From Stegostoma tigrinum (lineage: Eukaryota), in NCBI RefSeq assembly GCF_030684315.1, contig NC_081360.1, forward strand, positions 73,087,780 through 73,151,779: DNA of 64,000 bases. Direction: 5' to 3'. Below are positions 2,795 to 51,844 of the stretch, piece by piece. The notes under the pieces were generated by a model. It had not been told where the DNA came from. It worked only from the letters and a program-made list of their open reading frames with translations, and searched no databases. Numbering within the stretch: the stretch's first letter is position 1; each line of letters opens with the position of its first letter. Made by a program: the position numbers and the translations under genes.

Positions 2795-3165
2795 GTTGGG
2801 ATCAGAAACAAAGTTGCTGGAGAAGCTCAGCAGGTCTGGCAGCGTCCGTGAAGGTAATAAACAGAGTTAAGGTCTAGGCCCGAAACGTCAGCTTTTGTGC
2901 TCCTGAGATGCTGCTTGGCCTGCTGTGTTCATCCAGCCTCACATTTTATTATCTTGGAATCTCCAGCATCTGCAGTTCCCATTATCTCTTAAATTTTCGG
3001 GTCCGGTTTTGTTCTGAGCGCTGTTGTCCACCTGAGGAAGGGTCACCATACCTGAAACATAAACTCTGTTTTATGCCTCACAAATGCTGCTAGACCTGCT
3101 GAGCTTCTCCAGTAATTTTGTTTTTGCTCCTGGTTTACAGCATCCGCGATTCTTTCGGTTTTTTT
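2795..3165. repeat. Self-inverted family B element with a family A element nested at 2870-2989
   Basis: AAGTTGCTGGAGAAGCTCAGCAGGTCTGGCAGC...inverted GCTGCTAGACCTGCTGAGCTTCTCCAG. Confidence 0.88.
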
Positions 3166-3248
3166 AAGTTTAAGAGTTAGAATTGTTACAAGCGCCCTCA
3201 ATAAACACTTCCTGTACTATTTGTACATGAAAAATAGAAACAAATAAC

Positions 3249-4805
3249 CTTTTAGAGCCTCATTGATATACGTTTTGTAGAAGAATATTCTGTCAGTATC
3301 ATCCACAGTGGAAATCGGTTTTGTAGCTACTCCATTTCCAGTTATGTAAATAGGGGGATTGCTATACTCCTCTTTGATCCAGTTCAGAAGTCTTCTGAGC
3401 CCCCAGGCTGCAGCCCTGAACTTCTTAATAGCTGATGTTGGCCATCCTGGGTCAAATCCTTCAGCTGTGTCTCGATCATATTCATAAGAAAATGATTTCA
3501 GTTTGGCAATATTATGACTTACAATTTTCGTGGTGTATGTAGTGAGACAAAAAACATCTGCAGTACCACGGATAAAATTTTTCTCCTGCTCTGTAAACTG
3601 AGGAAGCCTTGAAGCTGACAGATGTTGCAGTTCACTCTTGTTTCCAACCTGCCATTTCATTGCCTCGGGATAATCACCATTTTTAAAAATGGGGTGTGCA
3701 AACCAGCCCAAAGTAAACTGCAGGTAGCGATCAGCTGCAGCCACATCCCGGAGATTATTAAATATCTTGGGTTCTGCCCAGTCTGCATTAAGGCTGATGG
3801 AAATTAAGCCTTTCTGAGTACTCCTGTATTTATCATCATATGTGTGAAAAGCTTTGGCATGAGCTTTTAGCACTACATGTGCTACTCTGTATGGAAGATG
3901 ACCTGGTTCATTTAAAGCTGGGGGAAAGGAGCTTGTGCCATATCCTTCCCAACTGAATACAGAGGGTTCGTTAAATGTGATCCAGAACCTAACCCTATCA
4001 CCAAAAGTTTTGAAGCAGTAATCAGCGTATGTATTGAACAAGCCAATCAATTCTTCTTTTTCCCAGCCTCCAATATCTTGAAGAGCCTGAGGTAAATCCC
4101 AGTGGTAAAGTGTTACCCTTGGTGTAATGTTGCTGGCAAGGAGGCCATCAATTAGCTTGTTATAGTAATTGACACCAGCTAAGTTCAATGATTCAATACT
4201 GCCATTAGAGAAAATACGAGGCCATGAAATAGAAAAGTGGTAAGTTTGAACTCTCAGTGCTCGAAGCATGAAAAGATCTTCATCAATTTTGTTGTAACTA
4301 TCACATGCAACATCTCCTGTATGACTTTTCAAGACCATATTAGGTGTGTGTGTGAAATTGTCCCATATACTAGGTCCTTTTCCGTCAGCATTCCACCCTC
4401 CTTCGATCTGATAAGCTGAAGAGGATGCACTCCACACAAATCCTTCTGGGAATGTGTCATAAAAAAATGTATCCCTTTCCATGTCCTCCTGGCCTGAAAA
4501 CTTCTCCCACACAATCTTAGCTTTAGAAGGTACTTCAGATGCAGGCAAAGCAGTTAATTTTTTAACATTATTGTTGTGAACAGTGGTCTGAATTAAGTAT
4601 TTCAAAGAACGATTAACAAAACCGTTATTCTTGATTATTTGTGTGTAAAGATATGCTGATTCCTTTGGCGTTCTAGGTCTGTTAGAATCTTCAAAATTCA
4701 CGTAATGGAGTCCAAATCGATGGTTGTACCCTTGTGGACCTTCAAAACTATCCATTAATGACCGTAGTGTAAATGCCTTCACATTGACATTATCTGTGAT
4801 AGAAG
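3249..4805 (-). CDS. LCT: LCT exon 8 (end of domain II, most of GH1 domain III)
   Basis: AG at 4807-4806, GT at 3248-3247; 1557 nt, phase 1->1; contains [38 protein letters not shown] and YITGNG. Confidence 0.96.
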
Positions 4806-5316
4806 CTGGTGGAATGCAAAGGTAAAGTGATGTTAAATATGTTTGCAGCAAATATATGCAACTAGCAAATTATGTGAGGCTATCGATCAACCAGTTTTAA
4901 AGTCATTATTCAGCTTTGCAACATGTTTTACCTTTAAATCTTCATTAATTTTGCAAAAATAGTTATGATAAATAAGTAAAGGTTAAAATACCAGTAGCTC
5001 TCTATTTTTGTCATGTGATTCATATCATTACTTTCTTGCCAAACTCATAATCATCACAATGCTTGTTTTTTGCCAACAAGCCCTATTGAAACTGTATGGC
5101 ATTTCTGCAGTACATCTAAGAAAATCTGTTTTCAGCAACTTCTCTCAAAATGTGCTATATACAGTAATTTACTATTTGCTTCAACTTTGTGCTTAAACAT
5201 TAATTAAAATAGCTAAGGAAATTGTATTATGGCAGGAATAGTAGATTAGGTGTGTGTCACATAACTACCAAATTAGCAAACCACTTTTTGAACCTTTATC
5301 AATATGATATGAGACA

Positions 5317-5638
5317 GGTGGCACAGTGGCTCAGTGGTTAGCACTGCTGCCTCACAGCGCCAGGAACCCGTGTTTGATTCCACCCTTGCGCGACTCTTTG
5401 TGTGGAGCTTGCATATTCTCCCCGTGTCAGCATGGGTTTCCTCTGGGTGCTCCAGTTCCCTCCTACAGCCCAAAGATGTGCAAATTAGACAGATTGGCCA
5501 TGTTAAATTGCTCACAGTGTTCAGAGATGTATAGATTAGGTGGGTCATAGGGGGTTGGGTCTAGGTAGGATGCTCTGAGGGTCAGTGTGGACTTGTTGGG
5601 GCTGGATGGCCTGTTTCCACACTGTAGGGATTCTATGA
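5317..5638 (+). mobile_element. tRNA-derived V-SINE (HE1-like)
   Basis: Box A TGGCTCAGTGG, box B-like GTTTGATTCC, central TGTGTGGAGCTTGCATATTCTCCCCGTG domain, CR1-like tail GGCCTGTTTCCACACTGTAGGGATTCTATG. Confidence 0.9.
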
Positions 5639-6183
5639 ATGATAGTCGAGGCTTAATGGAATCTTCAATCATCACTGTTGTACTATTTTGATTGAGGGCA
5701 TATTAAGAAATCTGTGCGCTTTTGTTTTCTTAGTAATGGCTTGGCACTGTGATAAGTGTATTACAATAGTTGTCACCTTGCTGGATCAGACCACATACAA
5801 GGAACTGGGATAGACTAGATTGTAGGTTGCAATATGGTTTACAAGATCAATACACCATAGTGTGGAAGATAGTAGGTTAATTTCTTAATAATTTAGATTA
5901 TGACACCTTTGGAATGAGTGCTTCAGTACTGAATAAACAGATGAATATTTATCAATAGATTATTTGTACATATCATACATCGATATTGAATCTGTAATTG
6001 CAATACAAGGTCTTTTTTTATTTAAGAAAACAGGGTATATTGTTGATGGTATCCTGCAATACAATGGTCAAATGATATTAAAGCAGAAATGACTGGCTGA
6101 ATAATTTATGGATAATTAGCATTATATGTTACTTACATGTTATTCCTAAATTATCTATAATGACAGAAGGAATATATATTTAC

Positions 6184-7929: not shown

Positions 7930-8246
7930 ATTTAGATTAGATTACCTAGAGTGTAGAAACAGGCCCTTTGGCCAAACAAGTTCACACCGCCTCTTGAAGC
8001 ATCCCACCCAGACCAATCCCCCTAAAACACACACACCCCAACACACTATGGGCAATTTAGCATGGCCAATCCACCTAACCTGCACATCTTTGGACTGTGG
8101 AAGGAAACCGGAGCACCCGGAGGAAACCCACACAGACACCGGGAGAATGTGCAAACTCCACACAGACAGTCGCCTGAGGCAGGAATCGAACCTGGGTCCC
8201 TGGCGCTGTGAGGCTGCAGTGCTAACCACTGAGCCACCATGCCGCC
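7930..8246 (-). mobile_element. V-SINE (HE1-like)
   Basis: Reverse complement of the same head and core; (AATCT)n tail. Confidence 0.9.
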
Positions 8247-9194
8247 ACAAATTTATAAAGCGTCTTTGTCACAGAAAATATCTCTAGATACTTTGCTGAG
8301 ATATACGATAACAAAAATGAATGCCAAGCTACAAAATTGAACAAAAATTAGATCAGAGCTGCTGTAAGGAAATTATTTAGTGCACAGAGGTAGATATTTG
8401 ATGGGTTATTTTTGTGAGGGAATCCCGGGGCGTGGGCCTATATAGCAACAACACGCAAACGAGAGTTTAGTTTATATATCATGTTGAATGTGATAATATT
8501 GCACTGTGAGCTTCACAAGAGTATTATAAAGCAAAATTTGATCTTGACTTACATTTGAATGAGTGGGGTGGATGGCCAAAGGCTTGGTAAAAGAGGTAGG
8601 TTTTAAGAAGTGTTTTAAAGGAGGAATGTGAGGTGAGGAGAAGCGAAGAGGTTTAGTAGGGTATGGACCTTAGCAGCTGAAGGCAAAGACACCAATGACG
8701 GCATGATTAAAATCAGGAATGCTCAAGAGGCCAAAATTAGAGGAACAAAAGTCTTTGAGAGTTGTTAGGGTGGCGATGTTTATGAAAGCGTGGAGATGGC
8801 GATGGTGGGGGTGGTACTGTAGAATGATGTGAAAATAAGATCAAGAAATTTTCAAAGTTGAGACATTGATGGGTGATTGGAAAGCGATAAGGTCACAGTC
8901 AATAGATTTTTGGATGGCCTCAAGTTTATACAAGGTAGAATTTGGGAAGCTAGCCAGGAGTGCATTGGGATATTTAAGGGTCAGTGTAACAAAAGGATAG
9001 ATGAAGGATTCAGTCACTGCAACAGGTACAAAATTAGATGACAAGAAGTAGGCCACCTTGGTGGTGCTGTGAAAATATGCTTGAAGGTGCTTCTCAGGGT
9101 CAAAAGTGACACCAAGTTGAAGATGAACCAAAGCTGATGAAGGACAGAAAGAAGTACAAGATGCGAAAATCAGATGAGATATGGTAGAATAGTT

Positions 9195-13645: not shown

Positions 13646-13868
13646 AAAAACCGAAAGAAAAAAACCGAAAGAACTGCGGATGCTGTAAATCAGAAACAAG
13701 AACAAAGTTGCTGGAAAATCTCAACAGGTCTGGCATCATCTGTGAAGGAAAAAACAGAGTTAACGTTTCTGAACTTCAGCAGGCCTGAAATGTTAACTCT
13801 GTTTTATCCCTTCACAAGCACTGCCAGACCTGCTGAGCTTTTCCAGCAACTTTGTTTTTGTTCCACTT
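13646..13868. repeat. Self-inverted family B element
   Basis: Inverted arms about 13695-13769 and 13786-13862; TSD ATGACAGAAT at 13636-13645 and 13869-13878. Other family B copies at about 15119-15350, 24422-24590, 26497-26595, 28991-29090 and 32103-32206. Confidence 0.88.
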
Positions 13869-14040
13869 ATGACAGAATGTCTGTCAGTCAGAGGAGCTGA
13901 ATGTCTTCATGGTGATGATAGCTTTTCGACACAAATTTACACTTAAAAGTTTGAAGAAGTGCTGAATGCATTTATCCACATTTTGGTAGATCCATTATGA
14001 CACCACAAACAAGAGGCAGATATCCTGCGTTATATATTTA

Positions 14041-14357: not shown

Positions 14358-16335
14358 TTTATAACCTGTCTCTATGTCACAGTCATGCCAGGCAACTCCT
14401 GGCTCCCAACAACCAGCAATTTTAAATGCCTCAGGTAGGGGAATACAGATACATTTCAATTGAATGCATCATTGCCTTTCTGCAGTCCCTTCTGGAGTAA
14501 TTGATTGCAGTAGGGAAACCGCGAAATTTAAAACTGACAGCCTTCCCAATTCTGTAGAAGTCTTGGACTGATGCTGGTGCCCAGGCAAGGCTGTCTCAGC
14601 TGAAAAAGATTGCTGCACCACAGATGGCATGAGCATCTGTCCAAAATACCCTCTTCTCACTCATCTTGGTAAGTGGGCCGGGGTCAGGATTAGGATCAAG
14701 CTGCAAACAATAGTTGTGCAGAACCAAAACTTCATGACTATTCTGAACATGTGAAATCTCTGGAAATTTAACATTACGGACATTAAAAAAAAAACTACAG
14801 CCTGAAGTGGTCCTCAGGTTTATTCATAAATATTACAAGATTTTACCAGTGGTCACTAATGCATGAAAGAGGCGTTGAGACAGTTTCAACAACTGTCTGC
14901 ACTGTGACTGGCTCAGTTATTGCATCAGGTTCTGAATAAGGCAGTTGTTCAAATACAAAAGCCTTAAAAACTGTCAAAGTAGGTTTAACTACTGAAAGCG
15001 TTGAGTAGTACTGAGTAAAATCAGTTGGGACCTTCACATAAATTTGATTATCTAGTTCCTTGAGATTGAAAGGTTGTGTGAAGAAGACTAAGTTTGACAT
15101 ATACATATGCACACACAACAACAGAAGTAGAAATTCCTGGAGAAACTGAGCAGGTCTGTCGGCATCAGTGGAGAAAAGGTGGAGTTAATGTTTTGAGTCC
15201 ACTGATCCTTCTTCAGAAGTATTCTGATGAGGAATCACTGGACACAAAACATTAACTCCACTTTTTCCCACAAATGCTGCCAGACCTGCTAAGTTTCACT
15301 AGCAATTTCAGCTTTTGTTTCAGATCTCCAGAATCCGAAGTTCTTTATTCTATGTTATTTAGATTAGAATATAGATTGTAGACCTTTACTTTGTTTGGTC
15401 GGTACTTTTTATTTTATATCAGTACATTTAGAATGCTTACAACCAATTTTTATCAATTTCCACTAATAAAGATACATTATTTGTGATGAAAAATACTTTC
15501 CCCCAATTTCTGGAAAATGATCTGAAGGTTTTATAAACCAATAGCTGAATCTTCCCTGTTTTTTTGTTTATGAGACCTAACCTGTTTTCCTGCACCATCA
15601 TCTTGAACCCACCTCATTTACAAGCTATCACACCCCCGTGGTAGCCCTCTCATCACATGCTAGTCCAATTCTTCTGCTTGCTGTAGCCAGAAGGACTGAC
15701 CTCTGCTAGGGTTTCCTGAGATATACTAGAAATACACAAGTGCTGGGGCCACATTTAAAAGGATATTGTACACGCAGTCTAATGTTCAGTTTTGCAAATT
15801 TTTGGCTGTTGTTGTGCTACTCTCCAATTACAACTCACTGTGTATTTGATGTTAAGAATGATTACATAATGTTTGCATTTCTTTGTTTGCAAGAAATCAT
15901 ATATTTTCATGTTAATGACAAAATATGGAATAACAATTTTTGAATTCCATCAGCTAATTGTAATATCTGAAACATCCATGGACTGAAATACTTTTTAGAA
16001 GGGAACAAACATTGACTGGAAATGACTCAGCAAATTACTGATTATACAGGTTAGCCAAGATTAGGAAATCATTGTTGAATAAACCAAATGATCTGAACTG
16101 AGATTGACATTGTATCAGAAGGTACCAAAGCCAGTCCAACAGTCATTCATGAAGGAATCCTGTTTCTGCTGTTTTGACTTAAACCTGTATGATTAGTTTC
16201 ACATACTGGAGATGAAAGACTTCATCAAGCTTGGAAACATTGAACTCAGGCATAGAAATGCACACATTAGCTTGCATTGCATGGAATTGCTTTTGGTACA
16301 ACTAGGGAGATTGTGACTGCAGAACTGGAGATACA

Positions 16336-23681: not shown

Positions 23682-23765
23682 GGAAGGGTCTCGGCTCGAA
23701 ATCTTCCTGCTCCTCTGATGCTGCTTGGCCTGCTGTGTTCCTCCAGCTCTACACCTTGTTATCTA
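23682..23765 (+). repeat. Family A short element
   Basis: CTGATGCTGCTTGGCCTGCTGTGTTC core; direct repeat CTATTGATAGGAAGG at 23673-23687 and 23763-23777; further single copies at about 28700-28783 and 30277-30364. Confidence 0.85.
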
Positions 23766-23945: not shown

Positions 23946-24859
23946 CTGCAAATAAAAATAACAATGAATCTAGATTCAATTCTGTGAAAGATTTTACATT
24001 TGTTGCCACTTTACCATTGACAATTTCCAAAAGATAGCACAAAATTGCTGTTAATACTGATTGCTAACCACTTGCATTTATACAGCTCCTTTTCTGTAAT
24101 AAAATCTCCCAAGAAGCACATTAGAAAGTACACTTTGAATCAATTGTAAAATTAAACCGTTAGTCATACCTGAATCAAGGAAGGCATGAGGAATTTTATT
24201 TTGTTGAACTTTAATAAACTGTCATACATCAGGATTCTTGACCTTAGACTTTGACAAAAAAGAGTGTGATTATTATTGCCTTGTATTTACATGACCATAA
24301 TCATGTAGAGGATTAAGTATTGCACAGCAATATTACTTCACAAAATAAGATAAATATGGATAAGGACATCATTTGACCAGTTCTATCTCTCCCATCTTGA
24401 AGAACTACAATTTCTTGAATAAAAATAGAAAATGCAAAGAAAAAACACTGAGCAGGTAAGGCAACATCTGGGGAGTGAGAAAAGGTTTCTCAACCAAACT
24501 AAAGTGTTAACTCTGTTTCTCCATCTGTTGAGCTTTTGCAGCATTTCCTGTTTTTATTTCAGATTTCCAGCAGACGCAGCATTCAGATTTTTTTGATTAT
24601 GAACTGTTGTTGCTTCTACTCTTTATACCTTGCATAATTCCAGGGTTTTCAGGTAATTCCATGTATTAGTCATTTTTACTGAAGAGCTTCTTGATATTAT
24701 AATATTTTGCTTTGGTCAAATGGTAATAATTCTGCCTGTGTCAAAGTTTTGAAGCATCCGATCCCAATCCACAAGCAAAATTCTGACAGCTGTTTGGGAT
24801 GGACTGGGAGGAGGGAAGACTGACATGTCAGCATTTGAAAACTACTGGCCTATAGTTTT

Positions 24860-27590
24860 CTGTTCTCTTTCTCCCTCCCCTTTTGAATAGATGAGTTACA
24901 CTTAAAATTTTCCAATCTAATGAAACCTACCTCAAATCAAGGGAATTTTTGGAAAATTAAAATCAAGTCTCCAGGCTGAGGTTCATCAGTATCCAAGGAC
25001 TTGTCAGCCCACAATTCCAAGAAATTTGCTTAGTACCACTTCCCTTGCTGATTGTAACTTTGTCGAACATTACCCGCCTTTCCTGATATAACACCGTTTC
25101 CAGGGTGTTACAAATATCTTCTATAGTAAAGGCCAATACAGAATACCTGCTCCATTCATCTCTTTATTTTCCAATATTAACTCCCCAGATTCACTTTCTG
25201 TAGGAATAACGTTTACTTTCTTAACTCTTCTCTGTTGTTGACTATCTATAGAAACTTTTACCATCTGTTTAAATGTCTAGCCAGCTTTTTCTCCTCCTCT
25301 AATTTTTCTGCCCTTATCAATTAATAGTCATTCCTTGCTTCTTTTAATATTCTGTCCTGCTGCCCATCTTTGCACAATTACATACTTTTTCTTTAATGTG
25401 CTATCTTTAACCTTAATGTGCTATCTTTAACCTTTACTTAGCTTCAAATGATGGGTCTCACACTTGGATTTCTTTTTCTTTCTTCTTAGAATGTTTCTAT
25501 TTTGGGTTTCTTAAATGTCTGCCACTCTATCTATATCTCTGTTCTTTAACCTAGTTTGCTAATGTACTTTAGCTAGTTCTTTCATGCCCTCACCATTTTC
25601 TTTATTTAAATTTAAAACATTAGTCTTAGATGCATTGTCATTCGCTTAAAATGAATTTAAAATTTAATCATATAATGGTTGCTGTTACTTGGAGGTAACT
25701 TCACCATGGGGTCATTAATTAATTTTACTTCACTGCATGTTGCCATGGTAGAACCTGATCTGTTTGGCTCCAGAATGTGATGTTCTAAGAACCCATCCTT
25801 AAAACACTTGATGGACTGCTCATGTGCATGCATATGCTCATCTGTATTTAGGTTATTCCTTTCTATTGTGCTAATACTGACTGTTAGTTAACAGCCATCC
25901 CTCCACCTGCCATGCTTTTGCATCATCCAGTAACCATTCCCCTCCATGTACAGGATTCCAGCTACATTACAGGTCAGAAGCCCCTAGCAAAACTCTTTGT
26001 CCCCTCTCCCCACTAACCCACCGACACCAGTGATCTCAGAGTGCAGGAGCCACCTCTCTGACCCACAAGGTGCCTGTGACTTCGGAGCCAAACACTGTCT
26101 CCACCCACTGAAGTGGCAGCCAAAGCAGCAGAACTGTTAGACTCCACCTAAACTCATCGACAGCCTCAGGGATTATTTGCACCTAACTGTAGCGAATGTG
26201 GCTAGGAACAAACAAAGGCCCAAACAGGCAGCTCAAAACCCAACGAGCAAAGGCCACTCAGCATAGCTCCCTGGCAAGGCCCAACTCCTGGCTTTACAGT
26301 CGGAGGGTGCACTGTAGGAAGTACTGTAATTAATATACTACATGTTTCCTTTTCACAAGAAATATTCAAAATTACTTTAACAGTTTTATTTACCAATGTA
26401 GGAACTTAATTGTTTAAAATACTGTATTTCGACTTCGAAGCATAATGTTATAATTCATTTCTCTGTTCAGGTGGGCCCAATAAAAAGCCTTCACTTCTGA
26501 GGAAGGGTCACTGGATTTGAAACATTAACTCTGCTTTCTCTCCCTGATGCTGACTGACCTCCTGCATTTTCCCAGCAATTTCTGATTTTGTTTCTAATGG
26601 AACCTAACTAGCCTTAACTTTGATTCTTACAGGAATCTTACTTAAAATTGCAATTTGTAGGAACACAGCACTTGGCTTTAAGTGAGGAAACCCTAGATAT
26701 TAGCCACAATCATCTGCTCTAATTTTGCTCGCTAACTTCTTGTGTGGGATCTTATCAAAAGCGTTTTGAAAGTTTCACTACTTATTGGTTTGCTTTTACC
26801 TATTTTGCAGTTACATCCTCAAAAACTTCAACACCTTCATCAAACAAGATTTCCCCTTCATATATCAATACTGATTCTGCCAAGTCCCACTACTAATTTC
26901 TAAATGTCTCATCTCCACATTCTTTACAACTGATTTTAAAATTTCCCCTATTATTGATGTCAAGCTGACAGGTCTGTAGTTATTTATTTTCTCTCTCCCT
27001 CCTTCCTTAACTGGTGGTGTTCTCTTTTCTACTCTCCTAACCACAGAAACCATTCCAAAATCTAGCACTTGCAAATTGACATCCATTGTCTCCACAGCCA
27101 CCTCGTTCAATACTCTTAGATATTGATCATCAGGTCCATGGTATTTGGTATTTTTCGATCCCATTAATTTCTGCATTTCTACATTTTTTATGAACTTTTT
27201 AAAAATTCTTCTTTCTTGTTAATCCCATTGGTTTTCCAGTTTTCTTTGCTCTTTGAAGACAGATGCAGTTTTTTTTAGTATTTTTTAAAAATTAGTCTTT
27301 GGCTCTCCATTACAAAATTCTAAAATCCTCAAATTTCTACTTTTTTTGGCAATTTTATAAGCCTCTTCCTTCAGTCTAATACAATCCGTTACTTCTCTTG
27401 TTAGATGTACTGTGATCACCTTTCTCGATGGATCTTTGTGCCTCGAAGAAGTATAAGTTTGCCTAGATTTTAAGACGCTAATTTTGGATTGAACCATGTC
27501 ACTTTCAAACATAATATAGAAATCAATTGTATTGTAATTATTCTTTCTTAGAGGCTCTTTGATGAATCTATAAATTACTTGTGAATAGTA
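24860..27590 (-). mobile_element. Highly decayed CR1-like LINE remnants, interrupted
   Basis: Minus-strand remnants such as KEGGREKINNYRPVSLTS (26865-27176); boundaries approximate. Confidence 0.65.
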
Positions 27591-28630: not shown

Positions 28631-29230
28631 GAAGTTGCTTAACAGGAAAAGGGCCTCACTTGAATCGAAGTCTAAACATAACATGAACAAATATTTTTTA
28701 CTCCTGTGATGCTGCTTGGCCTGCTGTGTTCATCCAGCTCTACACCTTGGATTCTCCAGCATCTGCAGTTCCTATTATCTCTGAGATTTTTTACCCCAGT
28801 GCATTCTCCTCCTCTGTTAAACGGGGGCTATTACCTGACAGATATAGATTCATCTCTAATGCTTTCCAACAGTAGTAGTAGTAATTCTTTTTGTGATTGT
28901 GATTAACAGTAAGTCTACTTAACACTGGCAGGGGTAAAATCAGACTTGTGATATTGTATCTACAATTTTCAGCTTAGATTGCTCCAGATGAAGTTCTGAG
29001 TAGGAGTCACTAGATCCAAAACTTTAACTCTGATATTTTCTTCACAGAAGCTGCCAGACCTGCTGAGCTTTTCCAGCAATTTTGTTTTTTATATCAGATC
29101 ATGTGCTCCTTCCAAATTCAAGGGCAGCTCTTGATGCTGATATAAAACACATTCTTCTTCTTTTATGCCTTCAACTGATCATCAGATGTGTCACGGAAGA
29201 TCAACTATGACAAACATAATTAAATAGAAA

Positions 29231-29472
29231 CATTTATAAAGTTTTTGAGAAGATTTGCAGGTTGGATTGTGGATGAGGTTATAGACATGCTTGCCGAGCC
29301 GGTGGGTTTGGTTGCAAATGTTTCGTCACCCTGCTAGGTAACATTGTCAGTGCGCCTCCGGTGAAGTGTCGGTGTTCTGTCCCTCTTGTTATTTGCAAAC
29401 CGATGTTAACTAGCAGGGTGACGAAACATTTGCAACCAAACCTACAAGCTCGCCGAACATATCTACAACCTC
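29231..29472. repeat. Self-inverted family C element
   Basis: 29274-29346 inverted against 29403-29473; TSD AAATAGAAA at 29222-29230 and 29473-29481. Confidence 0.8.
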
Positions 29473-31000
29473 AAATAGAAATGCTGTCATGCGATCAACT
29501 AATCTGGAAGAATTGGGCAATGGCATTAATGCGGTCATAATGCTACAGAGTAACATTGTTTGGAAAGTTCGATAAAATGCTATGACTAATAAAAGCTTGA
29601 ATTAACTCCCTTGTTACCAAACTAGCATGGGTAAGTATATTTTATACGTAGCAACTCTAAAATTAATTGCTAAGTGGAGACAAGAACTTGAAGCTTCTCA
29701 TCTTGGACTCATCAGGACTAGGACACAAAAGTTGAGAAAAGAGACACAAAATTATACAGCATGAGAAGAAGTCACTGATTGATTCAGCCATCATTGGCAT
29801 AGAGCTGCAGCAAGAACAGTTAACTGTCAATCTTAGCTCTTAGACCAGGCATGTAGATTCCGATTGGTCAGGGTTTTGCCACAGGAATGCAGCAGAGATT
29901 GGTGGTCTTCATAATCTGCCTATTCCAGCCTTGAATATGCCTAATGAACCAACCCATACAGACCTTGACAACAAAGAATTCCATGGATTAATTACCCTGT
30001 AAGATGAGAAATATCTTAAATAGGCAACCTCTTACTCTGAGTGTGGCCCTAGAGCCCCACACAAGGTGAAACAACCTCTCCGCATCAACCCTGTCAAGTC
30101 TGCTACTAATCATATATATTTCAACAAAATTGCTTCTCTTTCTTCTAAACTCCAATGACTAAAGGCCAAACAAACTCAGCCTCTCCCAGTAAAGTAGTCC
30201 TTCCATATCCTCATATCCATGGTAATTTCTGGGAATTCATTATGCCTACATAAAACAGAGTGTTAACATTTCTAGAGAAGGGCCCAGACCTGAGGGGTGA
30301 ACTTTCCTGCTCCTCTGATGCTGCTTGGCCTGCTGTGTTCATCCAGCTCTACACCTTGTTATCTCATATTAATATATGTAGCAGCTAGTACATGGAAATG
30401 TATCACTCTCCCAGCCTGACTGATGGTCTTAAATTGGTTTGCATTGCAATTTTCAGCATAGTTCAGGTTATTCAATAAATGATGTCCAATGACAGAATCA
30501 CATCCAATAGTGTAGATACTGCTGTGAAGCTGGCAACAATGGCTGGTTGAGCATATATGGCACGCTGCCTGTTGTGAATGGTCAATCAGACACTGTAAGC
30601 TTTTATTCTCACTTGCCCTGATCTATCAGGTTTACTCAGGATATCAATATTCCATGGCAGTTCTAACAACAGAGGGTACCCAAAGTTCTTTATTAAAAAA
30701 AGTACACTACTAGAAGTACGACAAAAATCTTACACACACAATGTTAACAATCACAAGTGAATCCATTTTTGTGGAGTTGTGTGAAAATCAGACCAGAACA
30801 GGAGATTGGCCTCCTCTGTCCCAATCTTGAATCACTGATCAAATGACCCCTCCTGAGCTAGATAACTGTGCTCTGAGGTAAGCCTTCCTTATACCCTTTT
30901 CTACACAAAGAAGCTGTATATTCAAATATTGACATTGTCCAGTCTCCAGTAAATGATCAGTTTAACCGCAGGTAAACATCACAAATATGCAGTTTACCAC

Positions 31001-31144
31001 GATAACAAAGTGTGGAGCTGGATGAACACAGCAGGCCAAGCAGCATCTTAGGAGCTAAGATACTGCTTGGCCTGCTGTGTTCATCCAACTCCACACTTTG
31101 TTATCTCGGATTCTCCAGCATCTGCAGTTCCCATTATCTCTGAC
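31001..31144. repeat. Self-inverted family A short element
   Basis: 31001-31050 inverted against 31056-31105; TSD GCAGTTTACCA at 30989-30999 and 31145-31155. Confidence 0.9.
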
Positions 31145-31341: not shown

Positions 31342-31812
31342 ACTGCAGCCCAATGGTATCAATGTGGACTTCACAATCTCCAAAATCTCCCCTCCCCCAA
31401 CCACATCCCAAAACCAGCCCAGCTCGTCCCCGTCTCCCTGCCTGTCTGTCCTTCCTCCCACCTATCCACTTCTCCCACCTCAAGCCCCACCCCCAACTCC
31501 TACCTTCCAGCCTCATCCTGCCTCCTTGACCTGTCCATCCTCCCTGGACTGAACTATCCCCACCCTAACTCCCCACCCACACTCACCTTTACTGGCTCCA
31601 TCCCCACCTCTTTGACCTGTCTGTCTCCTCTTCACCTATCTCATTTAACTATCTTCCATCCGCTTCCCCCCCCCACCTCTCTATTTATTTCAGAATCCCC
31701 TTCCCCCCTCCCCCATTTCTGAAGAAGGGTCCAGACCTAGAATGTCAGCTTCCCTGCTCCTCTGATTGTGCTTGGCCTGCTGCATTCCTCCAGTTCTACA
31801 CCTTGTTATCTT
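31342..31812 (+). mobile_element. Penelope-like 3' fragment, family A
   Basis: CTGCAGCCCAATGGTATCAATGTGGACTTCAC and downstream tract match 49297-49815. Confidence 0.9.
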
Positions 31813-32409
31813 AGCTACTAAATAGTACATATTATGACATCTGATTCACTGTGAATGTTTTAAACAGAACTTGAACTCTTTCAGAGTTAGTGTGATAATC
31901 CATTACTGCTGGCTACAGCACTAAATCTAAACATACACACATTCCTTCAGCAAAACTTAGAATCACTTGAACACAAGTGACAAGTGACGTTCCAAATTGT
32001 TAGGTCATCACCAGCCTTCACACATTTTTCCTCATTTCATTTCATTTTATTTAACTTCATTTTGCCTTACCCATCAAATTTTAGGTTAATACTTACACCA
32101 TGTTGATGAACAGTCACTGGGTTTCAAATATTAATTCTGTTTCTCTCTACACATGATTCCAGACCTGCTGAGTTTCTTTACCACTTTCTGCTTTTTGTTT
32201 CAGATGTACAACATGTTGTATGATACAGCTTGCCAGTTTTTGGGCTGTATGATCTACATGCCTGACATCACACCAGCACTGAAACTTGCATTTCACAATA
32301 TTCATCTGCGTTGTAGGGAAAATATCTTTCCCACTTCAAGGGATCATTCCTTTAGTGGAGAAAACCACTTTGGTTTATTGCAAAGCAGCAAAGTGAGATG
32401 GCTAGCTTC

Positions 32410-33030: not shown

Positions 33031-33720
33031 CTGGACTGAGCAACCAATTACACTAAAGACCAATTTCAGATCATCAGTTGGGTTTGCAGTATGGTACATT
33101 ATTGCATGTCGAAGCTATGGAGTTTAAAAGACAGGCCCCTTGATCTATGTAGGCAGGAATTTGTACGTAGATGGTTCATTTTTCATGAAACAAGAGGGAT
33201 TGGGTAGCCTTCCCTTTAATTCTTTTTCTTTTGACATGAACCTCTAAAAGTCCGCACACAGCAGCCATTGCAGAGTAAGCTGTGAGTGTTGCTAACCATG
33301 TTGGCACTTTGATTGCAGTGTGTGAAATGCCGGAGTGGTTTTGTGTATGTCCAGCTTAGACGGAACATTGATCATGGATTCTGCCAACCTCTCCCAGATT
33401 CATAGAATTAGCACACTGACCAATTAGAGTCTACATGCCTAGTCTGAGATTTAAGATTGATATTTAACTGTTTTCATTGTGTCTGTATGACACTGATGGA
33501 CTAATCAATCAGGGCCCTCTTCACTGCTGTATAAACTGGTGTCTCTTTCTTCAAGTGTGTCTCTTGTCCTGATGAGCCGAGACAAAAATATTGACTTCTT
33601 GTCTGTTTCATCAATATTTAGATTTTGTACAAGCAAGTAGTTATGGTGTTAATTGTATATTCCAAAGTTTACTTTAAAATCTTTTAACATTACAATTCCT
33701 AAATAAACAAGAACAAAGTT

Positions 33721-33939
33721 CAAGATAATGAAATGTGAGGCTGGATGAACACAGCAGGCCCAGCAGCATCTCAGGATCACAAAAGCTGATGTTTCGGGCC
33801 TAGACCCTTCATCAGATGAAGGGTCTAGGCCCAAAACGTCAGCTTTTGTGCTCCTGAGATGCTGCTGGGCCTGCTGTGTTCATCCAGCCTCACATTTCAT
33901 TATCTTGGATTCTCCAGCATTTGCGGTTCCCATTATCAC
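33721..33939. repeat. Self-inverted family A short element (93-bp arms, 1-nt centre)
   Basis: 33721-33813 is the near-perfect reverse complement of 33815-33907; 15-bp TSD AGAACAAAGTTCAAG at 33710-33724 and 33940-33954. Confidence 0.95.
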
Positions 33940-36175: not shown

Positions 36176-36319
36176 GAGATAGTAGGAAATGCGGATGCTG
36201 GAGAATTTGAGGAAAGCTGACATTTCAGGCCTAGGACCTAGGGTCTAGGCCAGAAACAACAGCTTTTCTGCTCCTCTGATGCTGCCTGGCCTGCTGTGTT
36301 CACCCAACTCTACATTTTG
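36176..36319. repeat. Self-inverted family A short element
   Basis: Head-to-head family A halves; TSD TTACCTATG(C/T)CTAT at 36162-36175 and 36320-36333. Confidence 0.8.
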
Positions 36320-37839
36320 TTACCTATGTCTATTCTTTGTTTTCTGTCTGAAACTAAAATCTCAATCAAAGCCCGAATATTTTCATGGTCATTTCATTTC
36401 ATGGCTCGGGGTAGAAATGATCAGGTTTAGGTACTCCTGCAATGATTTCAATTGTTAGAACTTGAAATGTGGCTGGCACATTCTTCATACCAAATGGCAT
36501 AACTTTAAAATGGTATAGTCCATTTGGTGTCACAAAAGCTGAAAATTTCTTTTGCTTTTTCAGATGAAGGTTCCTGCCAGTATCCTGTCTTATATTTCTA
36601 ACTTAGAAAGTCGTTCATCCTAATACAGTCTTCCAAATGTGGAATAAGAATAGGAATCAAAATTTGTAACTGCATTGAATTTGCAATAGTCCACACATAA
36701 TCATTGGACAGCATCTTGTTTTGGCACCATTACTGTGGGTGAGCTTCATTCCCTGCAACTCACTTCAATTATGTCATCTCTGAGCATGTTTTCAATCTTT
36801 CTGAATCTGTGCCAACTTCAGAGAGTTAAGCCTGTAAGGATGTTGATTAACTGGAACAGCATGTCCCATATTTATATCATGCATAATCAAATTATTACTT
36901 CCCAATTTATTCTCATGTACCTCCCCATGTAATTGTGATAACTCTTTCAGGCCATTTCAATTTTCCCCTGGAAGGTAACTCAATGATTTATTCCATTTTT
37001 GAGAACTTCCTCATTGTCCTATTTAACTTGATGAATGTCCAATTCCAAATCATCTGAACCATGTTCTTCACTCTGAGTTGTAACATTCCTTATCAAAATA
37101 CCTTTTGAGTATATTCAAATGACACATTCTGTGAGATTTCTTCTATCTGGCATTCTTATCAAGTAATTCACCACACTCAACGATTTGGTTTGATAAGGCC
37201 CACTAAACTTGCCTTCACAGGTTAACCTGTCACTGGGAATAACACTACACTTTATCTCTACCAGCAAAGTTGTGAATTTTTGATTTCTTGTTTGTTTCTT
37301 ATTTCATCACACGCTGTGCTACTTTTAAATGCAGTTTAGCCAACTCACCTGCTCTATTTAATCTCTAAAATTTAACATATAGCACAAGAACATTGTTTCT
37401 GAATGCTGATTCACCAATTTCTCCTTAATTAATTTCAGTGGCCCTCTCATCTCATGCCCCAAAATAAATTCAAATGGATTGAATTTCGTAGATTCATTAG
37501 GTGCATCACTAAATGCAAAAAATATAAATGGAATTCCCTTACCTCAATCCTTTAGACAATCTTGACCATAAGCCCTGAACATGGTCTCTAAAATTTGATG
37601 CCACCGTTCTAATACTTTCTGTGATTCTGGATGGTACATGATGGATTTGAATTGTTTTATTCCTTAACTACCCATACCTTCATTGAATAGCTTGATGTAA
37701 AATTTACCCTTGATCTGACTGTATTTCTGTGGGTAGTCCAGATCTAGTAACAATTTTAAGTAACTCTTCTACAATCCTTTCAGTCATGATGGAATGGTCT
37801 CTGGAAATCAGTCCCAAAGTCATACAACACCAGGTCATA

Positions 37840-38062
37840 AAAACTGAAAGAATTGTGGATGCTGTAAATCTGGAACAAAAACAGAAGTTGCTGGAAAAGC
37901 TCAGCAGGTCAGGCAGCATCTGTGAAGAAAAAAAATCACAGTTAATGTTTCAGGCTCGGTGGCCCTTCCTCAGAGGATCAGTGGACCCTAAACACTGACT
38001 CTTATCTTTTTCTTCACAGATGCTGTCAGACCCGTTGAGCTTGTCAGCAGCTTTTGTTTTTG
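37840..38062. repeat. Self-inverted family B element
   Basis: Inverted arms; diverged TSD ACACCAGGTCATA (37827-37839) / ACACTAGGTTATA (38063-38075). Confidence 0.85.
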
Positions 38063-39975: not shown

Positions 39976-40040
39976 CTTGAAGAAAAAAAACCCTGCAACA
40001 TTGGTCACTAGGTGTTAGTTCTTCAAGTAAGTTAGTTCTT

Positions 40041-42029: not shown

Positions 42030-42305
42030 TGTCCAAAAAACAGAAGTTGCTGGAAAAGGAGGTCCAGCAGAATCGATGAAGAAAATATCAGAGTTGGTGT
42101 TTCGGGTGTAGTGACCCTTCCTCAGAAGTTGTTGTAGAAGGGGGCAAGCTTTTGTCTAGTAACTTTTGTGAGGCTGAGGAAGGGGGTCACTGGACCTGAA
42201 ACATTTCTGATTTTTCTCCACAAATGCTGCCAGACCTGTTGAGCTTTTCCAACAACTTCTGTTTTTGTTCCTGACTTACAGGATGTACAGTTCTGGTGGT
42301 TTTTA
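42030..42305. repeat. Self-inverted family B element inserted in a CR1 3' end
   Basis: Inverted arms; TSD TTAGGATATTT at 42019-42029 and 42306-42316. Confidence 0.85.
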
Positions 42306-45059
42306 TTAGGATATTTGGTTGGCATGGACATGCTGAACTGAAGGATCTGCGTCTGTGCCACATAACTACATGATCTTCTAGAAACAGGCCTAGAAGAGTG
42401 TGAACTCAAAAATTAGATATCAATTAAAATAATTTATTAAACAACATAAAGGTACAATACATTTATATAAAAAGGGGAAGATAAAAGCCAGCTTATTTTT
42501 GGACCACTCCAAAAATACATCTAATGTGAATGCTAAAGAACTTTAGATTTTGTCCAGAATGTTTTATTTTGGAAAATCATTAGATGCTCCAAAAATAATC
42601 AAATATTTTGGTTCTGACTTTTAATCGAAGAATATTCACTATGATACAGTGAATTTCTCACAGAATTTCATCTGATGGAGCCAACATTTCGGAGGACATC
42701 TTTTCAACTCTAACTTAAGCAGAACTTGTTTCCGGCACCAGAAAGGAGATGGTTATAACTGACCAGAAAGTAAAACTGGACCAGTCATAACAGATTCTGT
42801 GGCTACAAAAGCAGGTCAAAGGCTTGGAAGTCTACACTAAATAAACTCACCTCACGATTCTGTAAAGCCTGTCTGCCAACTATAAAAGTCAGGAGTCTGT
42901 AATGATCAAGACAATGGCAGAGGACATGCTCCAGCCAGAGCTTGTCCACTCTGCCTGTTCTTCCTTTTTGTCCCCCCAGTGACTTTTTCCCTTCCTTCTC
43001 TCCCAGCTTGCGACAATTCCCAGCCTCCAGCGACACCTCCCGGTCTGGTGTAGCAGCCTCCTGACAAGGTGATCTAAAGCAATTGCCCAGCCTCATGATC
43101 CTCAAGGCGAAGAAGGCATGATCTGGAGTCATGGCCTGGTCTGGACTGGAGGCTAGGTGCCAGCGTGGTCTGGGTTGTAAGACTGTGGTTCTGAACTTTT
43201 ATTTCTACAATGCTGGACATTTTATTTCTCTATTTTCCTATATCCTGTAACGAAGGAAGCTGTACCTCAGTACCTTTTGTTGGGATCGTGTTTCAAACAG
43301 CGGCTGGAATTGGTGAGGTTTCAGACCGGGATCTGACATAAATCAATAACAACTACAGTTGGGATCACAACAATGAGCAATAAGCCTAAAACTCACAAGT
43401 AATACTCAAATTAAACAGATAAAGACTCCACAGACTACTATGAATCAACAGTAATGGTGATGTAACTGGCTTTTACTTTCTCTAAGAACTGTTCCATTTT
43501 GTCCTACTTAAGGATTCTTGTTTGGAACAATTTTAGTTTCCTCCCCAAATATCTTTTTCTCTCCTTTTTTAGAAACCTGCGGAAAACTAATCTTTTCAAC
43601 TAGGATTTTGACTTTCACCCTCAATCTTTCCTTCCACATGCTCACATGACGTCCTCGCTTGTTAGTAGGCTTGTTTTTGAAATCTTACTCAATATGTAGT
43701 GTTTAACAAAACATTCTTGCTTTTTATTACAAAAGCACAGCTTACGTTCCACAAGAAAAACCATTCTGAAGTATAATGATTGTATGCTAAATTCAATTTA
43801 TAAACCTTAGCCTGCTGTGTGAATTCATTTGAACAGCAAATTGCAGAGAACAGCTAGATACAAACAATTCCACTATTTCAAACTTTTGCCCTGGCACTCC
43901 TCTGGAGAAAGAAAATTGTTAAACAACAATCAGATTTCTACAATCTCAGTTACATAAAATCAGACAATAAGTCATCATCCTATAAGAAAGTATTACATCA
44001 AAGTTTGAAATGGACCGGTGTCTGGTACTAATCTAAATCACCCAGAAAAAATCTGGACACAATATCTGATTCACCCTCACTCATGTGCACAACTAAAACT
44101 TATGTTACCATGTCCAATCAAACATATTTTCTTTCACATCTTTTAAAAAACATTAACTCATATTCATGCCCTTACTAATCCCTCACTGCTATGCTTTTGA
44201 ACAGTTAACATCTGTACAAGATTTCCACTGACTAAACACCACTTCAGTCTCCAGCAATAGATCATCTGTTAAGATTGAGCAATAGAAGTGACAGCTGAAA
44301 TAGAAACATTTACAAATAGAAGCACGAAGTTAGTAAGATGAAACACTGGGAAAATATATAGTTTCCTTTATATTTTAATGAAGCCATTACACCAGTTTTA
44401 GGGTACTAATCTACAAGAAATACATTTACAACATTGCTTCAGCCACACAGCTACCTTTAAATTAGCCTCATGGCCGAAAAAATTTGCTCAGTCCTTCAAA
44501 TACCACCAAAATAAGGTCCCTTAAAATCTTGAACTTGAGTTGGGATTAAAATACAACATTCTCTAAGTTGTAGCACTTTAAAAAAGAACATAATACAATC
44601 CTTATAATCTATTTGTGATGTGCGCAAATTATTCAGTCACACGATCCAAAATAGCACATTCTTTTCTTCTAACTCATCTTGAATCATAAATTGTAACTAG
44701 CAACATGTAAAAAGATGTGGTTAGGAAACATGTGTGCATTTTAAACCATTTATCAGCAAAAGCCTAAAGTACACATTATAATTTCCTTACACCATTCAAG
44801 CTAAAAATACTTTTGGACTTAAAAACAAACATAAAAGATCATTAACATATTATTAAAAATGTATTAGACATCATTTGCTTTACCCCTTGATTAGCACTTA
44901 AGTAACCTGTTCAGAGCTAAAAGCCAAAATAATCCTACTCTGGAAAAGAATTAGATGATATCAAAGCTTATTCCATGCCTGTATTTTAGACAACTGTCTA
45001 TTTTAGCAAAGTTTTTATAAGTAACATATTCCACATTGATGCAGTGTAGCATTTCACAC

Positions 45060-48969: not shown

Positions 48970-49815
48970 GACTCCTCCTCCCTCACCCCTATCCCAGGCC
49001 CCAAGATGACTTTCCATATTAAGCAGAGGTTCACCTGCACATCTGCCAATGTGGTATACTGTATCCATTGTACCCGGTGTGGCTTCCTCTACACTGGGGA
49101 AACCAAGCAGAGGCTTGGGGACCGCTTTGCAGAACACCTCAGCTCGGTTCGCAGTAAACTGCACCTCCCAGTCGTGAACCATTTCCACTCCCCCTCCCAT
49201 TCTCTTGATGACATGTCCATCATGGGCCTCCTGCAGTGCCACAATGATGCCACCCGAAGGTTGCAGGAACAGCAACTCATATTCCGCTTGGGAACCCTGC
49301 AGCCCAATGGTATAAATGTGGACTTCACCAGCTTCAAAATCTCCCCTTCCCCCACCACATCCCAAAACCAGCCCAGTTCGTCCCCTCCCCATACCGCATC
49401 ACACAACCAGCCGAGCTCTTCCACTCCCCCCCACTGCATCCCAAAAGCAGCCCAGCCTGTCTCTGCCTCCCTAACCTGTTCTTCCTCTCACCCATCCCTT
49501 CCTCCCACCCCAAGCCGCACCTCCATTTCCTACCTAGTAACCTCATCCCACCTCCTTGACCTGTCCGTCTTCCCTGGACTGACCTATCCCCTCCCTACCT
49601 CCCCGCCTATACTCTCCTCTCCACCTATCTTCTTTTCTCTCCATCTTCGGTCCGCGGCCCCCCCCCCCCCCCCCCCACCCCTCCCTATTTATTCCAGAAT
49701 CCTCTCCCCATCCCCCTCTCTGATGAAGGGTCTAGGCCCGAAACGTCAGCTTTTGTGCTCCTGAGATGCTGCTTGGCCTGCTGTGTTCATCCAGCTTCAC
49801 ACTTTTATTATCTTA
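48970..49815 (+). mobile_element. Penelope-like element 3' part (GIY-YIG endonuclease plus terminal repeat), family A
   Basis: FTCTSANVVYCIHCTRCGFLYTGETKQRLGDRFAEH...EQQLIFRLGTLQPNGIN; pyrimidine-rich tract; ends in the family A terminal sequence. Confidence 0.92.
49718..49749 (+). ncRNA. Minimal type I hammerhead ribozyme core (best-preserved copy)
   Basis: CT-CTGATGA-A-GGGT(CTAG)GCCC-GAAA-CGTC-AG: complete CUGANGA and GAAA core, stem II, palindromic ACGT stem III, GUC triplet ending at 49747; stem I is only 2 bp. Confidence 0.65.
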
Positions 49816-50326
49816 CTCTCTTCTGCTTTCTAGGGAACCAAAAAAGAATCTATCACAGCCCTAAATATACACCAAGGTCTCTACCCCGACTACTTTCAGT
49901 GGCAAGGAGTTCCAAAGACACAAAACCATCAGAAGAAATTATCATCTCCATTTGAATTGGCATCCCTTAATTCTGAGGCTGTGTCATCTGGTCCTAGACT
50001 CTCCCGAAAGGAAACATCCCCCAAGCATTTACCTGGTCAAGTCCCCTAAGAATCACATATCAATGCGATCACCTCTTATTCTCCATTTCCAATGAGTAAA
50101 ATCCAATCTGTTTAGCTCTTGCTCATAAGTCGACCTCTCCATTTCAGGGATCATCCTAGTCAACTTTCACTGAACTGCCTCAATGAAATAATAAATTTTC
50201 TAAAATCAGGGGACAAAAACTGCTCAGAGCACTCCTGCTGTGGTACAAGTCTTACAGTTTCAGTAAGACTTCCCTAGTCTTTATTTCAAGGGGTGGAAAA
50301 TAAGGCCAACATTCCGTTAGCCTAGA

Positions 50327-51844
50327 GATAATGGGAACTGCAGATGCTGGAGAATCCAAGATAACAAAGTGTGGAGCTGGATGAACACAGCAGGCCAAGC
50401 AGCATCTCAGGAGCACAAAAGCTGACGTTTTGGGCCTAGGCCCTTCATCAGAGAGGGGGACGGGGAGAGGGTTCTGGAATAAATAGGGAGAGAGGGGGAG
50501 GTGGGCCAAAGATGGAGAAAAGAAGATAGGTGGAGAGGAGAGTTCAGTCCAGGGAAGATGGACAGGTCAAGGAGGTGGGATGAGGTTAGTAGGTAGGAAA
50601 TGGAGGTGCGGCTTGGGGTGGGAGGAAGGGATGGGTGAGAGGAAGAACAGGTTAGGAAAGCAGAGACAGGCTGGGCTGGTTTTGGGATGCAGTGGGGGAA
50701 AGGGAAGATTTTGAAGCTGGTGAAGTCCACATTGATACCATTGGGCAGCAGGGTTCCCAAGCAGAATAGGAGTTGCTGTTCCTGTAACCTTCGGGTGGCA
50801 TCCGTGTGGCATTGCAGGAGGCCCATGATGGACATGTCATCTGAAGAATGGGAGGGGGAGTTAAAATGGTTTCCGACTGGGAGGTGCAGTTGTTTATTGC
50901 GAACCGAGCTGAGGTGTTCTGCAAAGCGGTCCCCAAGCCTCCGCTTGGTTTCCCCTATGCAGAGGAAGCCACACCGGGTTCAATGGATACAGTATACCAC
51001 ATTGGCGGATGTGCAGGTGAACCTCTGCTTAATATGGAAAGTCATCTTGGGGCCTGGGATGGGGGTGAGGGAGGAGGTGTGGGGGCAAGTGTAGCACCTC
51101 CTGCGGTTGCAGAGGAAGGAGCCGGGTGTGTGGGGTTGGAGGGCAGTGTGGAGTGAACAAGGGAGTCACGGAGAGAGCAGTCTCTCCGGAAGGCAGACAA
51201 GGGTGGGGAGGGAAAAATGTCTTGGGTGGTGGGGTCGGATTGTAGATGGCGGAAGTGTTGGAGGATGATGCTTTATATCCGGAGGTTGGTGGTGTGGTGT
51301 GTGAGAACGAGGGGGATCCTCTTTGGGCGGTTGTGGTGGGGGCGAGGTGAGAGGGATGTGTTGCGGGAAATGCAGGAGACGCGGTCAAGGGTGTTCTCGA
51401 CCACTGTGGGGGGTAAGTTGCGGTCCTTGAAGAACTTGGACATCTGGGATGTGCGGGAGTGGAATGCCTCATCGTGGGAGCAGATGCGGCGGAGGCGGAG
51501 GAATTGGGAATAGGGGATGGAATTTTTGCAGGAGGTTGGGTGGGAGGAGGTGTATTCTAGGTAGCTGTGGGAGTCGGTAGGCATGAAGTAGACATCAGTA
51601 ACTAGCTGGTTGCCTGAGATGGAGACTGAGAGGTCCAGGAAGATGAGGGATGTGTTGGAGATGTCCCAGGTGAACTTGAGGTTGGGGTGGAAGGTGTTGG
51701 TGAAGTGGATGAACTGTTCGAGCTCCTCTAGGGAGCAAGAGGCAGCGCCGATACAGTCATCAATGTAACGGAGGAAGAGGTGGGGTTTGGGGCCTGTGTA
51801 GGTGTGGAAGAGGGACTGTTCCACGTAACCTTCAAAGAGGCAGG
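50327..51844 (-). mobile_element. Penelope-like element, 5'-truncated (RT C-terminus plus GIY-YIG), family A
   Basis: FLRYIDDCIG, HPNLKFT, FLDL, SSHP..CKNSIPYSQFLRLRRICS, then GIY-YIG; 17-bp TSD CATTCCGTTAGCCTAGA at 50310-50326 and 51845-51861. Confidence 0.95.

Follow-up and report, generated by a model that had tools for sequence, protein, structure and literature searches.

Within a 64-kb window of the genome of the zebra shark Stegostoma tigrinum, covering its lactase region, dispersed short repeats with hammerhead ribozyme motifs are almost certainly the terminal, pseudo-long terminal repeat (pLTR) segments of at least four lineages of Penelope-like retrotransposons (Penelope-like elements, PLEs), each with a minimal hammerhead. 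The ribozymes are a known and mostly decayed component of PLEs, here found in a shark, and dispersed minimal hammerheads were published in 2014. The value of the window lies in the ends of the copies, which bear on how PLEs form inverted repeats and tails and on the role of the hammerhead. The new point is a pile-up of copy starts at the 5' edge of the ribozyme, together with a TATA-like box upstream of it in the longer copies. All counts refer to this single window, in which positions are numbered, and C3 of the hammerhead core is taken as +1 for the starts and ends of the repeat arms.

A first-pass annotation had sorted these repeats into five families, A to E, and all 14 of the intervals that it quoted hold the kind of sequence stated. 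Exact CTGANGA and GAAA boxes joined by a stem II of at least four pairs occur six times, against a mean of 0.17 (maximum 1) in 30 block shuffles; with at least three pairs there are eight matches against 1.07, one of which, at 45733, is a chance match within a fragment of a long interspersed nuclear element (LINE). Allowing one mismatch leaves a weak excess over the shuffles (9 against 3.5 and 13 against 7.4). A family-blind descriptor, which also scores stems I and III, yielded six matches at a score of at least 7, from A, B, C and E, compared with 0.125 in eight shuffles. An Rfam scan at E up to 10 returned 12 matches, none of them a hammerhead and none at the gathering score; minimal PLE hammerheads were first detected by custom descriptors (Cervera and de la Pena 2014, PMC4209133). 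A covariance model built from A and B, run with filters off, recovered the 18 training arms and two further A/B arms at E <0.05, and at E up to 10 it missed C and E and reached D only at E 1.2. Descriptor enrichment, the census of cores and the linkage to PLEs all support the earlier identification of the motifs as minimal hammerheads of the PLE type.

The census, made by self-BLAST and nhmmer, comprises 13 A arms at ten sites, 15 B arms at nine, two C arms at one, three D copies and one E copy, amounting to 34 repeat arms at 24 insertion sites (Table 1). Part of the ribozyme is kept in 31 arms, both core boxes are exact in eight of these and the whole core survives in one, at 49720. More than 20 copies had been announced, and that figure stands if decayed copies are counted and falls for intact ones. 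Nor are the five families unrelated: A and B are homologous (alignment z 15.3, and z 12.2 for the part downstream of the ribozyme alone) and the other nine of the ten family pairs lie at background, so that there are four lineages, A/B, C, D and E. With one copy of E and one site of C, neither is established here as a family. The proposed CpG-type decay of most copies was confirmed, with TG, CA or TA at the two CpG sites in 14 and 17 of 27 A, B and C arms, and changes away from CpG amount to 4/81 at A13-A15.1 and 3/27 at U16.1.

The assignment to PLEs rests on different grounds for the different lineages. Family A is directly linked to a reverse transcriptase (RT) and an endonuclease, B is homologous to A, and C, D and E, for which no adjoining open reading frame (ORF) within the window provides a direct link, are placed with PLEs by their motif layout and are probable members. 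The earlier placement of A at the end of the PLEs (48971-51844) was correct, as RT, linker and endonuclease run into it, and A forms the 3' end (pLTR) of three longer copies, PLE1, PLE2 and PLE3. PLE2, whose coding region is broken by stops and a frameshift, aligns to shark PLE proteins over the RT (YIDD), the linker CNRRRCYTC and the endonuclease, and it is flanked by an exact target duplication of 17 bp at 50310 and 51845. PLE1 shares 92% DNA identity with PLE2 over 410 nt, and its GIY-YIG Pfam match is weak (E 6e-4, under the curated cut-off). The best protein matches are to PLEs of S. tigrinum (91%) and Rhincodon typus (89%). A CX2-5CxxC linker marks the Neptune and Nematis PLEs (Craig et al. 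2021, PMC8557442), and the parent of family A appears to be of Neptune type, as judged by this motif, which Nematis shares. The PLE frame stays open for about 130 codons beyond the endonuclease, through the ribozyme, whose core holds an ATG in that frame, to a stop that PLE1 and PLE2 have in common with the S. tigrinum protein P0001 (48898-49764, plus; 50407-50979, minus). The indels are in frame, and the open frame may only reflect a stop-poor, pyrimidine-rich strand.

Insertion architecture is informative for A and B. Ten sites are head-to-head pairs. Target duplications of 13-17 bp exceeded the best of 500 random controls in 6 of 25 boundary sets, and because four of them flank whole head-to-head pairs, those pairs are single insertions; duplications were looked for and not found at PLE1, PLE3, 15120 and two D copies. 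The 3' ends cluster near +93 to +106 or +125 to +137, and exactly one arm is tailed, by about 30 nt, in all nine A/B pairs (p <=0.002 if the arms are independent), the right arm at 13783 being bounded via its duplication where local alignment overran. If its 9-bp duplication is real, the C pair, with a left arm about 40 nt longer, obeys the same pattern. Solo copies include three with the long 3' end, six with the short and one intermediate (n=10). The two arms start within about 5 nt of each other in seven of the ten pairs. An inverted partner, a tail at one end and a target duplication, all present here, are marks of endonuclease-bearing (EN+) PLEs, in which the 30-40 bp tail also occurs at one end only (PMC8557442; Arkhipova et al. 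2013, PMC3846280) and corresponds to the span between two internal RT start sites (Frangieh et al. 2024, PMC11167929).

Amplification of a palindromic element from one master, in the manner of a miniature inverted-repeat transposable element, was considered and ruled out, since the central junction is different in every one of the ten pairs. Older PLE ends have twice served as insertion targets, for an A arm in the cut-site region of a B arm (2871-2989) and for a B pair in the 3' end of E (37837-38062). The spacers of two B pairs (42126-42173 and 3009-3031) match no other window sequence found and may derive either from the region upstream in the B parent or from captured RNA.

The 5' ends are equally restricted. 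Among 19 hand-read starts of A and B insertions, 12 lie at -8 to +10, four at +11 to +45 and three far upstream. The start rate per base within -8 to +10, an interval picked after inspection, is ten times that just downstream (p 1e-5 for A and B together; five of ten starts and p 0.009 for A alone), and the stretch from -9 to -370 holds no start of an A copy. Copies that start at the 5' edge of the ribozyme hold it uncleaved and therefore did not begin at the cut site; a cluster of starts at that site (+29/+31) was looked for among the A and B arms and not seen. A TATA-like heptamer lies 34-45 nt before C3 in seven of the eight longer copies (three A, three D and one E, but not C) and in none of the 12 short arms, against a background of 0.095. 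The box of PLE1 recurs in PLE2 at 50479-50485 (minus) and in PLE3 at 31682, 37 nt upstream. Transcription generally starts about 30 nt after a TATA box, which would here coincide with the first stem I strand and with the starts of the short copies. A splice acceptor was rejected as the cause of the A 5' ends: the CAG 24 nt upstream is not the start of any short copy, and all of them lack a shared upstream exon.

The ribozymes themselves depart from the expected structure mainly in stem I. An extra base between A9 and stem II is present in A, B, C and E and not in D. The closing pair 10.1-11.1 (n=17) is G-C in nine cases and G-U in six, and is unpaired in two. The stem III palindrome in 27 A, B and C arms is CG in five, a CpG-decay form in 17 and another sequence in five, and reads AGCU in E and AAGCUU in one D copy. 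Across the A and B arms, stem II is paired in 89% of alignment cells and stem I in 54%, with the third pair of stem I unpaired in 11 of 14. Stem I has two pairs in A and most of B, three in C and four in E and one broken B, where about 4-5 pairs are expected of helix I in a minimal type I PLE hammerhead. The AGTT/AACT stem I earlier assigned to B was found in one copy (28991, core broken) and not in the others, three of which read ACTT, and the GTC..GAC stem of D holds for one of its three copies. No covariation emerged from 18 A and B arms (score 0.205 against 0.198 shuffled, 184/500), in an alignment that makes this a weak test, since one row is misaligned and stem I takes in junction bases; the lineages that cannot be aligned have different stems with pairing kept. 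Folding z-scores for nine copies were never below -1.5.

Nearly all copies appear, from their cores, to be dead as ribozymes. The sole complete core, at 49720 with a stem I of two pairs, has a predicted cut after 49747. It is predicted to fold into a hairpin that sequesters the core by pairing CUGAUG with CGUCAG (-11.4 kcal/mol, 77% of the ensemble), and the active dimer, estimated at -5.5 kcal/mol, is less stable than a pair of hairpin monomers (-22.8) or the best duplex (-38.0), in a model that leaves out the tertiary energy of the core. Since the hairpin buries the core and the active dimer is energetically disfavoured, unaided cleavage of this copy is predicted to be unlikely. Low dimer activity (PMC4209133) and dependence on protein (PMC11167929) have been reported for PLE hammerheads.

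The best reading, to which we assign a probability of about one half, is that the short copies were made by reverse transcription running off uncleaved PLE mRNA at its 5' end. The mRNA made from the pLTR promoter would have its 5' end a few bases ahead of the hammerhead core, and the element protein would nick both target strands, 13-17 bp apart. Reverse transcription could then start at either of two pLTR sites, about 95-105 or 125-137 nt in, giving tail-less or tailed ends. With the downstream pLTR of a read-through RNA as template, ordinary long 5'-truncated copies would result; with the pLTR at the RNA 5' end, synthesis would run off after 100-140 nt and leave short, promoter-less copies with an uncleaved ribozyme. 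Use of one nick would produce a solo copy, and use of both, with one run-off per nick, a head-to-head pair with one arm tailed and the other tail-less, after which the copies would decay neutrally. The short copies thus look like one-off products of PLE reverse transcription. It has been reported that PLEs cut and extend both strands with uncleaved RNA as the main template (PMC11167929) and that their transcription start lies within the pLTR (PMC2377424, PMC8557442).

Several observations weigh against the run-off reading. An initiator-like match near -4 is found in PLE3, 26497 and 29715 and is absent from PLE1 and PLE2, the TATA-like box of family A has a mismatch, the spacing to C3 varies over the 34-45 nt given above, and four of the 19 A/B insertions start within or past the 3' half of the ribozyme. 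Drosophila Penelope has a TATA-less internal promoter (PMC2377424) and an intron ending at helix I (PMC4209133), so that the start site and the ribozyme need not coincide. As B has no long copy here, its pile-up is compatible with run-off and with a short master alike. Only three of the eight pairs tested have partner arms that are closest relatives, the ranks being 3-9 of 14 in the other five, so that a common template is only a possibility. Moreover, the numbers from a single 64-kb window are small.

A more far-reaching version, which we hold tentatively and consider somewhat improbable, would make the hammerhead the first 30 nt or so of the mRNA behind the cap in several PLE lineages, shut by the core-pairing hairpin. 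A protein dimer would prime both nicks, using each RT start site once, and run-off would mass-produce solo and head-to-head copies of about 100-140 nt. A position right behind the cap would explain a stem I of 2-4 pairs and, if this is true, shark genomes hold a very large fossil record of the run-off step, readable by end counts. The one-tail rule (9/9) and the 5'-end pile-up at the ribozyme provide two genome-wide predictions.

The rival that survives best accepts a PLE origin and has RT stalling or folding back at the ribozyme hairpin of a long read-through RNA, yielding truncations and snap-back pairs. The family A ribozyme is indeed predicted to form a stable hairpin, +1 to +30, and the near-symmetric junctions of seven of the ten pairs would fit. 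A stalled RT is expected to stop at the 3' base of a hairpin, whereas most ends lie at its 5' edge; the same ends occur in B copies, for which the hairpin is not predicted, and the TATA-like spacing in three lineages is left unexplained. Thus, although self-priming has been proposed for rotifer PLEs (PMC3846280) and PLEs are typically 5'-truncated (PMC8557442), we find this account unlikely.

Considerably less probable is a non-autonomous PLE derivative resembling a short interspersed nuclear element (SINE), with a master RNA of about 140 nt transcribed from just before the ribozyme by an internal promoter and mobilised in trans. It is most plausible for B, where none of the 15 arms is joined to an ORF and the solo copies have no common upstream sequence (the best 8 of 36 upstream comparisons all involve partner arms). 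Internal promoters and non-autonomous PLEs are both known (PMC2377424, PMC8557442). The same pile-up occurs, however, in family A, which has coding copies, and B is homologous to A and old, at 8-27% from its own majority sequence, so that its coding parent may lie elsewhere or be lost. A short non-autonomous master for B, which lacks a long copy in the window, is possible.

We are a little more doubtful still that the repeats are retrozyme-like families replicating via ribozyme-cut or circular RNA, as had first been suggested. The hammerhead layout recurs in four lineages, and a preprint derives animal retrozymes from pLTRs and describes tandem ones in one chondrichthyan (bioRxiv 10.64898/2026.07.22.740005). 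None of the seven tandem arrays in the window holds the motif, however, and for lack of tandem ribozyme repeats these copies are not retrozymes; neighbouring copies lie on opposite strands, the core is included in copies that do not start at the cut site, pair junctions are private and short copies are without the TATA-like box. Only the one arm of 31 is intact, the energies predicted for its dimer are unfavourable, and a stem I of at most four pairs is too short for loop-loop contacts. Like the animal non-LTR retrozymes (PMC7229834; the preprint above), the repeats are non-coding, bear hammerheads and derive from pLTRs, but retrozymes are defined by head-to-tail repeats with at least two ribozymes and by circular RNA (PMC7229834), and those seen here are solo or head-to-head, shorter and minimal. 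The canonical type I fold with a loop 1-loop 2 contact is not found, given the short stem I and the Rfam result. Solo hammerhead copies should therefore not be tallied as retrozymes. Finally, the idea that ordinary repeats happen by chance to resemble a short motif, for which the empty Rfam scan, the lack of A/B covariation and the poor reach of the A/B model might speak, is already largely refuted by both comparisons with shuffles (6 against 0.17 and 6 against 0.125), by a core, G-C closing pair and palindromic stem III kept with different stems in four sequence-unrelated lineages, and by the agreement of motif position with known PLE hammerheads.

Thousands of dispersed minimal hammerheads, with several families per genome and opposite-strand pairs, have been credited to truncated PLEs, and the motif has been reported in Neptune and Poseidon PLEs of fish (PMC4209133). 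The shark motifs resemble that set in their core boxes, the extra base between 9 and 10.1, G10.1-C11.1 and the palindromic 15.2-16.2, as well as in forming several sequence families in one genome, mostly as single dispersed motifs with some opposite-strand pairs. They differ in helix I, with two pairs in A and most of B, compared with 4-5 in the Schistosoma mansoni set and two in Drosophila virilis. Most of the main text of that paper and one supplement name no shark. The RT followed by a C-terminal GIY-YIG endonuclease with a CX2-5CxxC linker, the 5' truncation, inverted partner, one-end tail of 30-40 bp and target duplications are those of Neptune-clade EN+ PLEs (PMC8557442, PMC3846280), whereas most insertions here consist of the pLTR only (arms of 60-140 nt), and neither a full-length nor a tandem copy occurs in the window. 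For PAc, a Poseidon element of Anolis, tailed and tail-less ends are accounted for by a pair of RT start sites and both strands are cut, as would apply here; its ribozyme lies near the ORF start, is inactive without protein and is dispensable for insertion (PMC11167929). PAc belongs to a different clade, and the available sections of that paper are silent on the 5' ends of short copies and on tail pairing in head-to-head insertions. No report was found of PLE hammerheads in sharks, nor of run-off copies or strict tail pairing, in a search that left most subscription papers and Repbase outside and is correspondingly weak.

Table 1. PLE copies, repeat arms and associated motifs in the 64-kb window.
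Feature	Position	Strand	Basis
PLE2, 5'-truncated Neptune-type PLE: C-terminal part of RT, Cx4CxxC linker, GIY-YIG-type endonuclease, tailed family A 3' end	50327..51844	-	tblastn, 86-88% to shark PLE proteins
PLE1, endonuclease part and family A 3' end, tail-less	48971..49814	+	91% to Stegostoma tigrinum PLE protein
PLE3, older 3' fragment of same lineage, decayed ribozyme at 31719, tail-less	31343..31812	+	76-82% to PLE2
Complete minimal hammerhead core, predicted cut after 49747	49718..49749	+	core census, descriptor
TATA-like TATTTAT, 34 nt before C3	49686..49692	+	motif scan; putative function
A head-to-head pair, junction at ribozyme 5' edge, right arm alone tailed	33721..33937	.	14-bp exact target duplication
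A head-to-head pair without ribozyme, junction near +38/+42, right arm alone tailed	30997..31143	.	13-bp duplication, 1 mismatch
A head-to-head pair, junction near +8, left arm alone tailed and internally deleted	36176..36324	.	14-bp duplication, 1 mismatch
A solo arm, tailed, inserted at TTAA into left arm of older B pair	2871..2989	+	arm ends, nesting
A solo arm, start near +6, tail-less	23684..23765	+	15-bp exact target duplication
A solo arm, tailed, without ribozyme	28694..28782	+	nhmmer census, arm ends
A solo arm, decayed core, start about 4 nt before C3	30268..30365	+	arm ends
B head-to-head pair split by A arm, exact core boxes at 3032, right arm alone tailed	2798..3165	.	arm ends, core census
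B head-to-head pair, junction near +23/+19, left arm alone tailed	13659..13866	.	duplication score equal to null maximum
B head-to-head pair, both arms from 3-4 nt before C3, right arm alone tailed	15120..15346	.	arm ends
B head-to-head pair, old, right arm alone tailed	24413..24593	.	census, arm ends
B solo arm, exact core boxes at 26497	26493..26596	+	motif scan, core census
B solo arm, sole B with 4-pair stem I, core broken	28992..29099	+	descriptor, core census
B solo arm, old	32104..32214	+	census, covariance model
B head-to-head pair within 3' end of element E, left arm alone tailed	37837..38062	.	arm ends, nesting
B head-to-head pair, spacer of about 45 nt, exact core boxes on both arms, right arm alone tailed	42036..42306	.	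14-bp duplication, 1 mismatch
C head-to-head pair, decayed hammerhead at 29350 (minus)	29231..29473	.	9-bp exact duplication, borderline
D copy, TATA-like box 39 nt before C3 (33569)	33413..33604	+	nhmmer census, motif scan
D copy, TATA-like box 41 nt before C3 (29715), palindromic AAGCTT stem III	29678..29874	-	nhmmer census, motif scan
D copy, old, exact core boxes at 20063, TATA-like box 45 nt before C3	19988..20099	+	nhmmer E 4e-5
E, single copy, stem I 4 pairs, stem II 5 pairs, AGCT stem III, G8 changed, exact TATAAAT 37 nt before C3	38064..38199	-	descriptor, motif scan

The setting is vertebrate-like in its CpG content (observed/expected 0.26 across the window). A large minus-strand exon is 100% identical to an NCBI lactase-like protein of S. 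tigrinum and 91% to one of Chiloscyllium punctatum, and the lactase exons run from 28466 to 1662 on the minus strand. The first of them (27822-28466) aligns to the Chiloscyllium protein; the S. tigrinum isoform X2 model, with its start at 27865, lacks nearly all of it. On the strand of the lactase gene and upstream of it lie exons of the MCM family, at 58804-63461 (four of five ORFs tested), an arrangement that may correspond to the MCM6-LCT neighbourhood of human. Sixteen of the 24 PLE-end sites fall between the lactase gene and 52 kb, eight in lactase introns and none in the final 12 kb around the MCM exons.

Other repeats are also present. A family of about 320 bp, unrelated to the ribozyme repeats, occurs at 5317-5643, 7938-8261, 14027-14357, 38398-38707 and 59885-60206; it presumably resembles a tRNA-derived SINE, and ARAGORN found no tRNA. 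One lactase intron harbours a near-intact LINE ORF (984 codons; 9141-12095, plus) that encodes endonuclease and RT domains and is probably of CR1 type.

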